A stretch of DNA of 64,000 nucleotides, taken from positions 7,071 through 71,070 of the forward strand of contig JBKJHW010000046.1 in the NCBI GenBank assembly GCA_046598935.1, written 5' to 3'. The DNA comes from Vicinamibacterales bacterium (GTDB taxonomy: Bacteria > Acidobacteriota > Vicinamibacteria > Vicinamibacterales > SCN-69-37). Each line of letters starts with the position of its first letter. Position 1 is the stretch's first letter. Both the position numbers and the translations under genes were made by a program. Below the pieces are notes generated by a model. It was not told where the DNA came from, did no database searches, and saw only the letters and a program-made list of their open reading frames with translations. Positions 20,922 to 64,000 of this stretch are shown piece after piece.

Positions 20922-21000
20922 GTACGAAAGAAAACGACATCGGGTGTCGTTTCCGCCGTGCGGACCAACGGAAACGACACCCGATGTCGTTTTCTTCTAC
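20922..21000. repeat. family-A composite palindromic element (two inverted AAACGACA-YCGGG-TGTCGTTT hairpins)
   Basis: The sequence is GAAAACGACATCGGGTGTCGTTTCC..N16..GGAAACGACACCCGATGTCGTTTTC. It lies between the pheS start and the DUF4242 stop codon, and the stop codon sits inside the element. Confidence 0.85.
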
Positions 21001-24966: not shown

Positions 24967-25065
24967 GCCCAATCGCCCGATATCAAATAGCAAAGGGCCG
25001 CCCCGGTGAACCCGAGACGGCCCCAATAACCAGCTAACCAGATGGTCAGCTAACCAGATTCACGC

Positions 25066-25341
25066 CTATTTATTCACTGCCACCTTCAACGCTTTGCCCG
25101 CCGTGAACCGGGCCACCCGGCGCTTCGGAATCTTGACCGTTTTCCCGTTCTGCGGGTTGCGGCCCAGACGCGCCTTGCGGTTCGACGTCTTGAACGTGCC
25201 AAAGCCGACGAACGTAACGGGCTGACCCTTCTTCAGCGACTTGACGATCCCGTCAATCAGGGAATCAACGGTGGCTGCCGCCGCCGTCTTCGACAATCCG
25301 CAATCCTTGGCAATCTTCGCGACAATTTCCTGCTTGTTCAT
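25066..25341 (-). CDS. hup: HU family DNA-binding protein
   Basis: Sequence MNKQEIVAKIAKDCGLSKTAAAATVDSLIDGIVKSLKKGQPVTFVGFGTFKTSNRKARLGRNPQNG matches HU. Confidence 0.9.
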   Translation of the reverse strand: MNKQEIVAKIAKDCGLSKTAAAATVDSLIDGIVKSLKKGQPVTFVGFGTFKTSNRKARLGRNPQNGKTVKIPKRRVARFTAGKALKVAVNK

Positions 25342-25528: not shown

Positions 25529-26701
25529 CTATGAGCCGGATTTGGCGCGTTCGATCGCCTTCAGCAACATGTCGTCTCGGGCCGGGGCCGGCTCGCCAAA
25601 TTCGATCGCGGGCTCTTCGACGTTCACATCGGGCTTCACGCCGCGCTCGAGGATCGGCGTGGGCTCCGCGTTGATGCTGTAGTAACGGCGATACGTCATC
25701 CACAGACCGTGGTTTTCGGGAAGCCGAACGAGGCGCTGTTCGGCGGCGAGCCCGGCCGTGCGTTCGCCGACCAGTTCCGCGCGCTTGTTGCCCGACAGCG
25801 CCGCCGCAAACACTTCTGCGGGTCCGGCGGTGCCGAAATCCTGCAAAACGACCACGCGCATCTTCAACGCGGAGGCTCCCGACATCGAGCCGATGTTTTC
25901 CTTCGCCGTGGCGTCCCGCCCGGCGCGCGTTGCGACCGTGCCCATGCCGATAAATACCTGTGCCGCTTTGATCGCTTCCTCGTACGCGCCGTCGGCGACG
26001 CCGCGGATGTCGATCACGAGCGCCTTCGCGCCGGCCTTCTGCATCGCCTCGGCCTGGCTGCGAAGCGCAGTCGAGGTGGCGCCTGCCGTCGAGAACGTCT
26101 GGAGGCGCACGACGCCGACCTGGTCGCGGATCTCGGCCTTCACCGCATCGGTGAGCTTCTCGCGCACGAGCGAAACTTCGTGCGGCTCGGCCGCGTTCCC
26201 GCGAATGATCAGCACGCGAACGCTCGAGCCGACGGCGCCGCGCAGGAGCCGCGTGCCCGTAAACGCCGACATGTCGCGCGTCGGCGTGTTGTCGATCGCG
26301 CGCACGAAATCGCCGCTGCGGATGCCCGCGCGAGCCGCCGGCGAGCCGTCGCGAACGCCGAGCACGCGCAGGTAGAACTGCCGCGTCACCACGAGCCCCG
26401 TGTCGCCGTCGCCAAGCGGCGTCTTGTTGTCGATGAGCGCCACTTCCGCCGGCGGGAGATACGCGCTCGACGCGTCGAGGCCTTCCGCCAGCCCCCGCAT
26501 CGCGCCGTCAAACACCTTGTCCGGATCGACGTCCTCGACATACGCGCCGTTGACGAGCGACACGACATCTTCGAACACGCGAAGATGCTCGAACCCTTTT
26601 TGAGGAACCGCCGGCGACGCACCGATCAGGCCGCCGACCGCAGCCACGATGACGAGCGGGGTCGAGAGGGCGACAAGGAACCAGCGCGCTTTTGAGCTCA
26701 T
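25529..26701 (-). CDS. S41 (C-terminal processing peptidase) family homolog with a PDZ domain; catalytic residues apparently substituted
   Basis: Signal anchor MSSKARWFLVALSTPLVIV, a PDZ-like middle region and an S41 core. The GSASASE motif reads GTAGPAE, and TFGKG reads TAGLA. Confidence 0.7.
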   Translation of the reverse strand: MSSKARWFLVALSTPLVIVAAVGGLIGASPAVPQKGFEHLRVFEDVVSLVNGAYVEDVDPDKVFDGAMRGLAEGLDASSAYLPPAEVALIDNKTPLGDGDTGLVVTRQFYLRVLGVRDGSPAARAGIRSGDFVRAIDNTPTRDMSAFTGTRLLRGAVGSSVRVLIIRGNAAEPHEVSLVREKLTDAVKAEIRDQVGVVRLQTFSTAGATSTALRSQAEAMQKAGAKALVIDIRGVADGAYEEAIKAAQVFIGMGTVATRAGRDATAKENIGSMSGASALKMRVVVLQDFGTAGPAEVFAAALSGNKRAELVGERTAGLAAEQRLVRLPENHGLWMTYRRYYSINAEPTPILERGVKPDVNVEEPAIEFGEPAPARDDMLLKAIERAKSGS

Positions 26702-26714
26702 GCCTGCTCCGATT

Positions 26715-28823
26715 CTACTGTTTCCACAAGGGCTTGCCGTCGATCGTCTTCGGAATCGGGACGCCGAAGTGCTGAAGGACAGTCGGGGCAATATCAATGA
26801 TGTTGGGCGTGCTGGTTAGAATCGGGCGATTTGTGATCAAGACACCGGCTGTCGTGGCGAAGTCATACCCGCCGTGGTCGCCCGACCACTTCTGGGTGTT
26901 GTTGTAGACGATCCCCTTTGGCGTGCCGCCCTGGGCGGTCTGCCACGACACGCGGTAGCCGTCCTCGAATCCCAACTGCAGGTCCGGCGCGTTGCCGATG
27001 TACTCGCCCGCATAGATATCGTCTCGCTTGTAGACGTTGCGGACGATGTGCTGCCTGGTGTCCGGATCGATAAGCCCGGCCTTCAGCGTGTTGACCATTT
27101 CATCGGCCAGCGCGACGTATTCGGCGCCGGGACTGACGATGCCCTCGCCCTCGCGCCCGCGCACGTTGAAATAGATCTGGCCGAGGCCCATCGCGTACGC
27201 GCGCGTCTTCGACCAGTCGACATTCTCCCAGAACGTGCCGCCGCCGAACAGGTCATCGAGCTTTCTGTCGCGCGATTCACCCTGGCCCTTGAGGACCATG
27301 TAGCCCTGCTCGACGAGCCAGGTGTTCACATTCACGGCCTTGTTCCAGGAATGAAAGCCGTGGTCCGAGACGATCATGATTTCGGTGTCGGGGTCGAGAT
27401 GCTCTCGGACCTCGGCGATGAAGTTGTCGGCGCGCCGATAAATTCTCAGGATCGAATCGCCATACTTCGCCGCGTCGGCGGCGTTGTAGAGCGGCGACGT
27501 CGTGTCGCGGTAGCGCCACATCATGTGCTGCACGCGATCGGTGGACTCGATCACGCCAACGAGCACGTCCCAGTTGCCTGCGGTGAGCCGGTTGAGAATG
27601 ACCTGCGCGCGGTCGTCGAATGCCTTGTAGAGGTCGTCCATGAACGTCTTCTCGTCCATGCGCCCTTCGTTGAGCGGCCACGTGGCTTCGGCCCAGCCAA
27701 GCGTGCGGAACGGGCCGATCTTCTTGTAAATCTTCTCGGCGAAGTCTTCGGGGTACGAGATCGGCGTCGGCGCGGCGTCCGGCCGGAAGTTCACCGGCGA
27801 CACATACAGCTGGAGTTCGTTGCCCGCGTTCATGACGAGCAGCTGCACCATGCCGTGCACCCGCATCATGAAGTTGATGTCGAACCGCACGTTGACCCAC
27901 TGGCTCCACTCCCCGGCCTTGAGCGTCATCTTCTCGCCGTTGAGATTGATGAGCGCCTGGTTCGTGCCGCGCGTCCACGTGATCGCGAGCGGCAGCGACG
28001 TGTGCTCCCTGGCTTTCAGCTCGCCGATGGCCGTGCGGTCCGCGTCCGAGAGCGAACTGCCTTTGTCATAGAGCGCGTCGATCTTTTTCTTGATGAGCGG
28101 ATTCGGCGGGCCCTGCAGCTCGGTCTTCGCCGTTGTGCCGTCGAACGACAGACGCTTCAGAATGCCGCCGAATTCCGTGTCGCCTTCTTCGTAGCGGCTG
28201 AGGTCGGTCGCGAAGTAATAAAAGGTGCCCATCGTGCCGCGAATGTCCGGCAGTGGGAGGCCTGACAACAGCTCGCCATTCGGCACCGTCTCCGGCGGAA
28301 AGGTCACCGGCACTGTGAGTATGCTCGCCGGCACTCCAGCCTTGCCCGCCGTGACCCAGAAACTCTCGCCGCCGCGGATCGACTCGACGCGCGGTCGCGC
28401 CACGGGAATGCCGTCGAGCCACGAGCTGCCGGGCAGGCTGCGGATAAATCGCACCTCAGCGAGCGATCGCGCGGGGATGCGGCGCACCATGCCGAGATCG
28501 AGCACGTAGTTCGATGTGTCGCGAATCAGAAAATCGTAGATGTTGTGTTTGCCCGGGTTGACGCCAGTGGCAAACGAGGCCCACGCTGTCGGCGACTCGG
28601 CCGACACCGTCGTCCCGAGATCATAGAGCCCGCCGCGCTCGGCGAGCTTCTTCATGTTGGGCAACTGGCCTTGCGCCATGAACTCGCGGACCAGATCCGG
28701 GTCCATGCCGTCGAATCCGAGAATAACGAGCTTGTTCTTACCCGTGTGCGCGGGAACTTTGTTCCCGCCGCATGCGGCCAGCGCCGCGGCTGCCAGCGCG
28801 ATGAAAACGAACGCCCTTTTCAT
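26715..28823 (-). CDS. alkaline-phosphatase-superfamily protein (type I phosphodiesterase/nucleotide pyrophosphatase family), lipoprotein
   Basis: Signal MKRAFVFIALAAAALAACGG. Contains ILGFDGMDPDL, ESPTAWASFATGVNPGKHNIYDF and VSDHGFHSW. The ATG at 28823 is preferred; the track N-extension runs through the family-A repeat. Confidence 0.75.
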   Translation of the reverse strand: MKRAFVFIALAAAALAACGGNKVPAHTGKNKLVILGFDGMDPDLVREFMAQGQLPNMKKLAERGGLYDLGTTVSAESPTAWASFATGVNPGKHNIYDFLIRDTSNYVLDLGMVRRIPARSLAEVRFIRSLPGSSWLDGIPVARPRVESIRGGESFWVTAGKAGVPASILTVPVTFPPETVPNGELLSGLPLPDIRGTMGTFYYFATDLSRYEEGDTEFGGILKRLSFDGTTAKTELQGPPNPLIKKKIDALYDKGSSLSDADRTAIGELKAREHTSLPLAITWTRGTNQALINLNGEKMTLKAGEWSQWVNVRFDINFMMRVHGMVQLLVMNAGNELQLYVSPVNFRPDAAPTPISYPEDFAEKIYKKIGPFRTLGWAEATWPLNEGRMDEKTFMDDLYKAFDDRAQVILNRLTAGNWDVLVGVIESTDRVQHMMWRYRDTTSPLYNAADAAKYGDSILRIYRRADNFIAEVREHLDPDTEIMIVSDHGFHSWNKAVNVNTWLVEQGYMVLKGQGESRDRKLDDLFGGGTFWENVDWSKTRAYAMGLGQIYFNVRGREGEGIVSPGAEYVALADEMVNTLKAGLIDPDTRQHIVRNVYKRDDIYAGEYIGNAPDLQLGFEDGYRVSWQTAQGGTPKGIVYNNTQKWSGDHGGYDFATTAGVLITNRPILTSTPNIIDIAPTVLQHFGVPIPKTIDGKPLWKQ

Positions 28824-28828
28824 GGAGG

Positions 28829-28898
28829 AAGAATAAACGACATCGGGTGTCGTTTTCGCCCGCATTCCTCGAAAACGACACCCGATGTCGTTTATTCT
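28829..28898. repeat. family-A composite palindromic element
   Basis: The sequence is AAGAATAAACGACATCGGGTGTCGTTTTC..N13..GAAAACGACACCCGATGTCGTTTATTCTT. The outer 14-bp arms are perfect. It lies in the divergent region between the phosphodiesterase gene and ruvX. Confidence 0.85.
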
Positions 28899-28905
28899 TT
28901 TCGCT

Positions 28906-29343
28906 GTGAGATTTGTCGGCATTGATTACGGCAATCGGCGTGTCGGGCTCGCGATTTCGGACGCGACCGCCATGCTCGCGCGGCCCTGGCAGGTCGTCAC
29001 AACCGACGAGCCCGACCCTGCGAATTCCGCCGCGATGATCGCCGACCTGATGCCGCGCCTTGTGATCGACGATGACGGCCTCGACGGGATCGTCGTCGGG
29101 CTGCCGCGCCGGCTGGACGGCAGCGACAACGCGCAGACGCCGAACGCGCGGCTCTTTGGCGAGGCGTTGGAAGTCATCACGGGGATTCCGGTGACGTTTC
29201 AGGACGAGCGGCTCACGAGCGTCGAGGCCGAGGCGCAGCTGGCCACGCGCGAGAAGGACTGGAAGAAGCGCAAGCTGCAGATCGACGCGGTCGCCGCGGC
29301 CATCATGCTGCAGGATTTTCTCGACGCGCGAGTCCGCGGCTGA
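28906..29343 (+). CDS. ruvX: Holliday junction resolvase-like protein RuvX (YqgF)
   Basis: Sequence VRFVGIDYGNRRVGLAISD... matches YqgF. The GTG at 28906 is preferred because the ATG at 28885 lies inside the repeat. Confidence 0.8.
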   Translation: MRFVGIDYGNRRVGLAISDATAMLARPWQVVTTDEPDPANSAAMIADLMPRLVIDDDGLDGIVVGLPRRLDGSDNAQTPNARLFGEALEVITGIPVTFQDERLTSVEAEAQLATREKDWKKRKLQIDAVAAAIMLQDFLDARVRG

Positions 29344-63722: not shown

Positions 63723-64000
63723 ATGAGCCTGGCCCCCGGCATCCGCCTCGGTCCCTACGAAATCGTCGCGCCCATCGGCGCGGGCGGGATGGGCGAGGTC
63801 TATCGCGCGAAAGACACAAACCTCAACCGCGACGTCGCGCTGAAAATTCTGCCGGAGTCGTTCGCGCTTGATGCCGATCGTGTCGCGCGGTTCAAACGCG
63901 AAGCGCAGGTGCTCGCGTCGCTGAATCATCCGAACATCGCCGCGATCTACGCGGTGGAAACGACACCCGATGTCGTTTCCACCGCCCTCGTCATGGAACT
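63723..64000 (+). CDS. Ser/Thr protein kinase, 3'-partial (continues beyond the window)
   Basis: Sequence MSLAPGIRLGPYEIVAPIGAGGMGEVYRAKDTNLNRDVALKILP...LNHPNIAAIY.... A GCTATACT -10 box at 63707..63712 lies 10 nt upstream of the ATG. Confidence 0.8.
   Translation, partial: MSLAPGIRLGPYEIVAPIGAGGMGEVYRAKDTNLNRDVALKILPESFALDADRVARFKREAQVLASLNHPNIAAIYAVETTPDVVSTALVME
63956..63980. repeat. family-A single hairpin inside the kinase CDS
   Basis: GGAAACGACA-CCCGA-TGTCGTTTCC forms a 10-bp stem. It is translated in-frame as (V)ETTPDVVS. Confidence 0.85.

Follow-up and report, generated by a model that had tools for sequence, protein, structure and literature searches.

Carboxyl-terminal processing proteases (CTPs) of peptidase family S41, such as Prc, CtpA and CtpB, regulate cell-wall hydrolases and signalling and function as dimers, rings or hexamers, and all characterised bacterial CTPs are, to our knowledge, active Ser-Lys proteases. 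Among eukaryotes, S41 homologs without catalytic activity are known (IRBP), and other clans commonly contain pseudoproteases, such as iRhoms and Csp. In full-text literature searches we came across no account of S41 pseudoproteases in bacteria, nor of the acidobacterial family that is the subject of this study. The gene in question (25529..26701, minus strand) encodes a 390-amino-acid CTP homolog and lies within a 64,000-nucleotide stretch of a Vicinamibacterales genome (Acidobacteriota; assembly GCA_046598935.1, contig JBKJHW010000046.1, positions 7,071 to 71,070), which is referred to in its full length as the window. The window protein is a well-folded CTP scaffold that is kept by selection without the catalytic residues; homologs of this kind are called dead below, and homologs with the complete catalytic set active.

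CtpA of Pseudomonas aeruginosa and Helicobacter pylori (7rpq, 8sxe-h, and 9jr1) has the same domain order and belongs to the same length class as the window protein, to which it is ~26–30% identical (phmmer E 1e-38). Both have an N-terminal hydrophobic targeting segment, and Gln322 of the window protein is the retained equivalent of CtpA Gln331. The two differ in that the Ser302/Lys327 dyad, His84, Asp313 and the NPGG motif of CtpA are all replaced in the window protein, that the window gene has no adjoining gene for an LbcA-type TPR adaptor, and that residues of its transmembrane and PDZ segments are specific to its own clade. The S41 core is likewise homologous to that of Prc (Tsp) of Escherichia coli, a protein of ~680 amino acids with extra domains that works with NlpI, whereas the window protein is of the short CtpA/CtpB type and catalytically dead.

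The register of the catalytic columns was taken from a phmmer alignment of the window protein with CtpA of P. aeruginosa (7rpq), with the S302A mutant of the latter (7rqh) and with CtpA of H. pylori. The alignment runs without gaps through the core and sets GTAGPAE of the window protein against GSASAAE of CtpA, and TAGLAAEQ against SFGKGSVQ. Since 7rpq and 7rqh differ only in the residue that falls in the column of Gly293, the position of the nucleophile is fixed without recourse to a register chosen by eye. On the minus strand, Gly293 (GGA, 25823..25825) occupies the column of the Ser nucleophile (CtpA Ser302, Prc Ser430), Gly304 (GGC, 25790..25792) the column of CtpA Asp313 and Prc Asp441, and Leu318 (CTC, 25748..25750) the column of the Lys general base (CtpA Lys327, Prc Lys455). 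Furthermore, VADG (amino acids 235–238, 25988..25999) replaces the NPGG loop that follows the DLR motif of active CTPs, and column counts align Ser78 (26468..26470) with CtpA His84. Because CTC is at least two changes away from any Lys codon, Leu318 cannot be the product of one base-calling error. The original prediction, based on an alignment made by eye to the Prc core, had named the changes Ser to Gly, Asp to Gly and Lys to Leu; alignments guided by hidden Markov models leave the register unshifted, so that all three changes hold and neither a Ser nor a Lys is placed in the dyad columns. In CtpA, the S302A and K327A substitutions abolish activity in vivo and H84A lowers it (PMC11021448). 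The window protein would by the same residues be inactive against CTP substrates; judged by the Ser-Lys dyad it would fall outside S41A and should be filed as a non-peptidase homolog.

The replacements extend far beyond the window. A total of 201 Vicinamibacterales orthologs (database proteins and translations of fetched loci) were aligned and compared with 31 canonical active CTPs. The nucleophile column contains Ser in all 31 active proteins but Gly in 174 and Asn in 24 of the orthologs, with Asp, Ser and His found once each, and the base column contains Lys in all 31 active proteins but Leu (127), Arg (57), Ile (15), Met (1) or Val (1) in the orthologs. Lys was thus found in none and Ser in one of the 201, and relatives of the window protein share its substitutions. 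The column of Asp313 (Asp in 30 active proteins) shows Gly in 174 orthologs, Asp in 21 and other residues in the rest; the column of His84 (25 His and 6 Tyr among the active proteins) is variable, with Ser, Asp, Met, Leu or Ala; and the four NPGG columns (Asn in 31, Pro in 27, and Gly in 31 and 31 active proteins) contain Thr or Val, Ala, Asp or Glu, and Gly in the dead clade. This pattern of substitution is far beyond chance. The closest database homologs (n = 120, 55–92% identity) lack the dyad without exception (120/120), and the ratio of nonsynonymous to synonymous substitution (dN/dS) between the window gene and its orthologs is 0.20–0.25 (pairwise Nei–Gojobori) in the least saturated comparisons, dS being partly saturated in the deeper ones, which reveals purifying selection. 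With S41 homology, lost catalytic residues and purifying selection combined, the window protein may be regarded as a pseudoenzyme. The only ortholog with Ser in the nucleophile column (P0107, ~56% identical, GTASAAE) still has Leu in the base column, and its Ser is most likely a reversion or a polymorphism that does not restore the dyad.

The dead forms are widespread within the phylum. A scan of a genome collection for the dead-type motifs identified at least 503 species-level genomes with a dead-type gene, and the genomes with relatives among the matches listed are all metagenome-assembled genomes labelled Vicinamibacterales or Acidobacteriota. An exhaustive search of representative proteins gave 541 clusters at E <= 1e-30; among the best 150 of these, about half lack the Ser and/or the Lys, down to ~30% identity, and canonical active proteins (NPGG, GSASASE, FGKGSVQ) appear at ~30–35% identity to the window protein. 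Named dead members belong to the Vicinamibacterales, the Bryobacterales, the Thermoanaerobaculia and “uncultured Acidobacteriota”. In a quick neighbour-joining distance tree, which should not be over-read, the canonical active CTPs form one clade and the dead forms are diverse, and among the latter are intermediates that have lost one of the two residues and kept either Ser or Lys (GKQ, SIQ) as well as a few members that carry Ser and Lys. A single origin with a clean split between active and dead forms is only partly supported by this topology. The databases name the dead proteins “carboxyl-terminal processing protease”, “S41 family peptidase” or “PDZ domain-containing protein”, and automatic annotation of such forms probably credits a dominant soil phylum with a larger set of proteases than it has.

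The loss of the catalytic set is not accompanied by a loss of the fold. The window protein consists of an N-terminal hydrophobic helix (amino acids 3–27, 26621..26695; a helix in the AlphaFold model, conserved among the 201 orthologs), which is a probable signal-anchor; an N-terminal helical CtpB_N-like domain (amino acids 35–91, 26429..26599; weak match to Pfam PF22694; helices 35–53, 60–75 and 84–91); a PDZ domain (amino acids 100–180, 26162..26404), delimited by Pfam, conservation and secondary structure, with matches to PDZ_6 (1.3e-11) and PDZ_2 (3.2e-8) over residues 110–177; and a ClpP/crotonase-like S41 core (amino acids 195–361, 25619..26119), all on the minus strand. The core is identified by Foldseek comparison with CtpA structures and by a match to Peptidase_S41 (PF03572) over the same residues (3.5e-27, 95.4 bits against a cut-off of 24). 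The score with the NCBIfam model “prc” (TIGR00225) is 153.8 bits and below the curated cut-off of 218.6, the score of only 65.9 bits with NF008388 fits the short CtpA/CtpB type and not Prc, and the protein is far under every cut-off of the CtpA, CtpB, CtpC and CtpZ exception models and does not reach the Prc model. An AlphaFold2 model based on an alignment of 129 sequences has a mean pLDDT of 94.7 and a pTM of 0.88, and its best Foldseek matches in the PDB are the CtpA structures of H. pylori (E 4e-34) and P. aeruginosa, with TM values of 0.75–0.83. Gly102 of the carboxylate-binding loop of the PDZ domain, which is invariant in active and dead forms, is retained. The original prediction of a PDZ domain next to a preserved S41 scaffold is in agreement with the Pfam matches and the confident CtpA-like model, and its description of the protein as a retained pseudo-protease is borne out by these two features together with the intact Gly102, the substitutions common to the 201 orthologs and the low dN/dS.

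The distribution of constraint within the protein is informative about what may be selected. Residues were classified as clade-specific if they are conserved in at least 95% of the dead clade and not so in the active proteins. Five such residues lie in the transmembrane helix (S13, P15, G23, G24, and G27) and ten in the PDZ domain (R107, Q108, Y110, R112, D118, S120, R134, R142, S145, and R151), where they map on or beside strand 103–108, strand 110–116 and helix 146–153 of the AlphaFold model, and the linker contains the clade-specific motif RGNAAEPH. In PDZ domains generally, the ligand groove is bordered by the second helix and by the strand next to the carboxylate-binding loop on its C-terminal side, elements which we take to be helix 146–153 and strand 103–108 in the window protein. 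The pattern of residues favours a particular ligand for the PDZ domain and a defined contact within the membrane. Within the core, clade-specific invariants are few (T291, F298, E313, T315, A319, and P328), and the conservation of the 201 orthologs reveals no Ser, Cys or His there that has become invariant, so that a relocated active site is disfavoured.

A candidate partner emerges from the gene neighbourhoods of 84 related loci. In 57 of the 84, among them essentially all orthologs that are ~51% or less identical to the window protein, a gene for an EnvC-like protein of ~380–420 amino acids lies on the same strand immediately upstream of the dead S41 gene (e.g., L080 8725-9984 and L081 8829-9980). 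In 19 loci the stop codon of the EnvC-like gene lies in a 4-bp overlap with the start of its dead S41 neighbour, and in most loci no more than 40 nucleotides separate the two genes. The encoded protein combines a signal sequence and a long coiled coil with an M23/LytM domain at its C-terminus (Pfam 5e-24), and the murein hydrolase activator EnvC is the best NCBIfam match. The metal-ligand histidines of the HxxxD and HxH motifs are absent from all 54 aligned copies, as they are from EnvC and NlpD. The degenerate LytM factors EnvC and NlpD resemble the dead CTP in being hydrolase homologs minus the catalytic residues with a role, in the case of the dead CTP a proposed one, in binding or regulating cell-wall enzymes, although they have the M23 fold and are unrelated to S41. 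A relative that retains Ser and Lys (P0324, in the cluster of P0157) is likewise encoded directly behind, and in overlap with, an EnvC-like gene, indicating that the pairing of envC and ctp is older than the catalytic loss. The literature searches gave nothing specific on a link between EnvC and CTPs. CtpA targets cell-wall hydrolases of the LytM/M23 and NlpC/P60 types (PMC6050968).

Taken together, the data point, with moderate confidence, to a non-proteolytic pseudo-CTP whose role in cell-wall remodelling would be that of a periplasmic subunit for binding or regulation, in cooperation with an EnvC-type factor, an active CTP or both. The protein would be anchored in the inner membrane by its N-terminal helix and face the periplasm, having kept the complete CTP architecture of N-terminal helices, PDZ domain, S41 core and C-terminal helix while losing the catalytic set. 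The PDZ domain and the crippled substrate cleft would capture a protein tail or a partner without cleaving it, and the dead CTP would serve the remodelling machinery as a subunit that binds, scaffolds or regulates but does not degrade. The ancestral partner would be the homolog of the coiled-coil, degenerate-LytM amidase activators, with which it is translationally coupled in most Vicinamibacterales. A cell-wall role in partnership with an EnvC-like factor is suggested by the coupled gene pair, the nearby mltG and zapAB genes and the hydrolase targets of CtpA, and a partnership with an active CTP by fusions of active and dead modules (see below); the two are mutually compatible, and the coupling and the fusions provide concrete candidate partners. 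A family that occurs in at least 503 species of one order, with relatives in other acidobacterial classes, has thus retained the whole CTP scaffold with the chemistry gone, and because the dead family is under purifying selection the scaffold should have a job independent of proteolysis, most likely tail binding, scaffolding or gating.

Several observations weigh against this interpretation. The inactivity of the window protein is deduced from its sequence. No EnvC-like gene was found in the 64 kb of the window by tblastn and profile hmmsearch of six-frame open reading frames (ORFs), and the gene is missing from the locus in ~27 close relatives of the window gene; the idea of this partner therefore rests on orthologs at ~51% identity or less. 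The dead S41 genes of other acidobacterial classes lie in unrelated contexts. The C-termini seen in the EnvC-like proteins (-WLKQR, -WLKRR) are basic, unlike the non-polar tails typical of CTP substrates. Remnants of an EnvC-like gene in two loci (L055, 115 amino acids; L075, 23 amino acids) indicate that the sub-lineage of the window has probably lost the gene from the locus. A wider formulation is offered only tentatively: that the dead proteins form an ancient CTP-pseudoprotease family throughout the Acidobacteriota, built into a coupled module of two pseudoenzymes with the EnvC-like factor in the Vicinamibacterales or fused to an active CTP elsewhere, and acting without proteolysis as a tail-binding regulator of an amidase or endopeptidase or as a gate of the active CTP. 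If true, this would reveal a non-proteolytic function behind the envC-ctp linkage.

A different explanation is that the dead CTP forms a hetero-oligomer with an active CTP paralog, in which it takes no part in catalysis but recruits substrate or acts as a gate, and that it is not an EnvC-linked factor. The best full-length match outside the Vicinamibacterales (P0133, 925 amino acids) contains two CTP modules, of which the N-terminal one is of the active type (NNGGG, GTASASE, WGKGLVQ) and the C-terminal one is dead (GTLGAAE, FGYAG) and 32% identical to the window protein. Four further clusters (P0476–P0479), 66–69% identical over the full length, show the same division into an active and a dead module (FG[YH]AG in the C-terminal module), which gives a total of five independent, metagenomic fusion clusters of 921–937 amino acids and suggests that a dead CTP module can cooperate with an active one. 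One fusion gene (L091 5134-7911) is divergent from a gene for a 306-amino-acid TPR protein, an arrangement reminiscent of the LbcA-CtpA and NlpI-Prc pairs. Searches seeded with P0133 returned, besides the fusions, stand-alone relatives of the N-terminal module of ~540 amino acids, all of them active CTPs with Ser and Lys and annotated as Thermoanaerobaculia or Acidobacteriota. A precedent for the fusion of an active and a pseudoprotease module is CspBA of Clostridioides difficile (PMC7200643), and in the same subtilisin-family system CspA and CspC are inactive homologs that are kept as regulator or receptor, although they belong to another protease clan and act in spore germination. However, no active S41 paralog was detected in the window by the same tblastn and hmmsearch procedure, a search of the ±10 kb flanks of the dead gene in the 84 loci for active S41 or EnvC-like genes found no active S41, and searches from active proteins resembling the window protein identified no named active CTP of the Vicinamibacterales (P0209 represents other phyla). 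Furthermore, the dead module of the fusions is no nearer to the window protein than other members of the dead clade, and the AlphaFold model of the 925-amino-acid fusion is too poor (pLDDT 59, pTM 0.40) for the packing of the modules to be read. This explanation is rather unlikely, if far from negligible.

Two explanations that assign a different chemistry or ligand to the core have very little probability. The first is a hydrolase with a non-canonical active site, for instance with Thr291 as the nucleophile. Other catalytic residues are found in the S41 relatives tricorn and CPAF, and Thr291, Glu296 and Gln322 are invariant in the dead clade, where the former active-site motifs are among the best-conserved segments of the core. 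But Thr or Ser is standard at position 291 in active enzymes, in which Glu296 and Gln322 are invariant as well, so that the three residues are structural. The base column with its Leu, Ile, Met, Val or Arg, the Gly or Asn at the nucleophile elbow, the altered NPGG loop and the lack of any clade-specific invariant Ser, Cys or His in the core also speak against catalysis. The second explanation, equally improbable, is that the core has been repurposed to bind small hydrophobic ligands in the manner of vertebrate IRBP (retinol-binding protein 3), which has the S41 fold without the Ser/Lys dyad, as does the window protein. The replacement of Lys by the hydrophobic residues Leu, Ile or Met would fit such a role, there is a weak match to retinol-binding protein 3 (9frx, E 2.3e-6, 76 residues, 255–330), and the AlkP-type phosphodiesterase (PDE) lipoprotein encoded by the adjoining gene could, speculatively, act on lipid-linked substrates. 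IRBP is, however, a distantly related eukaryotic protein of tandem modules without a PDZ domain that binds lipophilic ligands; CtpA is far closer to the window protein (1e-38 versus 2e-6), the strongest clade-specific constraint falls in the PDZ domain and not in the core, and many orthologs have Arg in the base column. Finally, a sequencing artefact or a decaying pseudogene without function, for which nothing beyond the missing catalytic residues speaks, is effectively refuted by the intact reading frame with its ribosome-binding site, an identical protein (P0001) in an independent public assembly, the 201 intact orthologs with the same substitutions, dN/dS of ~0.2 and the pLDDT of 94.7.

The position and frame of the S41 ORF at 25529-26701 in the original prediction are correct, as judged by the N-termini of the orthologs and the ribosome-binding site and consistent with the ORF listing, Pfam and a codon check. 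The start codon is the ATG at 26701, 13 nucleotides past the TAG stop codon (26715-26717) of the upstream PDE gene, and a GGAG ribosome-binding site (26707..26710, minus strand) was read in the sequence 6 nucleotides before it; the stop codon is the TAG at 25529-25531. All orthologs in related contigs begin with M-S/T-S-K-S-R-W, which together with the position of the ribosome-binding site rules out the TTG at 26797 that would start a longer ORF. The arrangement of the two genes implies that they are probably co-transcribed and possibly translationally coupled. The GC content of the window is 61–69%.

On the minus strand of the window, the gene order is PDE lipoprotein, dead S41, HU, terminator-like hairpin, thrS and infC, with ruvX and mltG upstream of the PDE gene in divergent orientation. 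The PDE gene (26715..28823, minus strand) is assigned to the AlkP-superfamily type I phosphodiesterases by Pfam PF01663 alone (2.9e-36). Its probable start is M34 of the longest ORF (28823; MKRAFVF...LAAC, with the lipobox MKRAFVFIALAAAALAAC) and not the first ATG at 28922; the gene is called as 702 amino acids in L004, and no Shine-Dalgarno-like box precedes the M34 start. Downstream of the dead S41 gene are a gene for an HU-family DNA-binding protein (25066..25341, minus strand) and the terminator-like hairpin (24994-25024). Across the 84 loci, the dead S41 gene is constantly framed by mltG-ruvX and, in the opposite direction, by thrS-infC-rpmI-rplT-pheST-zapB-zapA, a setting that includes genes of the cell wall and of division (mltG, zapA/zapB). 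In 51 of the 84, a PDE homolog occurs in the neighbourhood of the dead S41 gene, mostly with the EnvC-like gene in between. The PDE lipoprotein gene noted directly upstream in the original prediction is thus confirmed for the window, but the adjacency is not conserved. The PDE is ruled out as an obligatory partner, as the EnvC-like gene intervenes in most loci with a PDE gene and the other loci have unrelated genes or nothing in its place. In one sub-lineage (L002/L003, 4853-7927) a gene for a 1024-amino-acid protein with Tricorn_N-like, PD40 and amidohydrolase regions, together with other genes, replaces the PDE gene between ruvX and dead S41, which shows that different genes can occupy the position upstream of dead S41.

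The ruvX ORF as listed (28885-29343, plus strand) begins inside a palindromic repeat; judged by the conserved N-terminal motif of RuvX (VGIDYG), a GTG near 28909 is the more likely start. The repeat contains a 21-nucleotide palindromic unit, AAACGACACCCGATGTCGTTT, which occurs five times in the window (20932-20992, 28835-28893, and 63958-63978), with none expected by chance. Two of the occurrences are inverted pairs, and the pair at 28835-28893 nearly fills the ~85-nucleotide intergenic region between the divergent PDE and ruvX genes. Among 91 fetched loci the unit was found only in L004, which is from the same organism as the window, and it looks like a lineage-specific element similar to repetitive extragenic palindromes or an operator.

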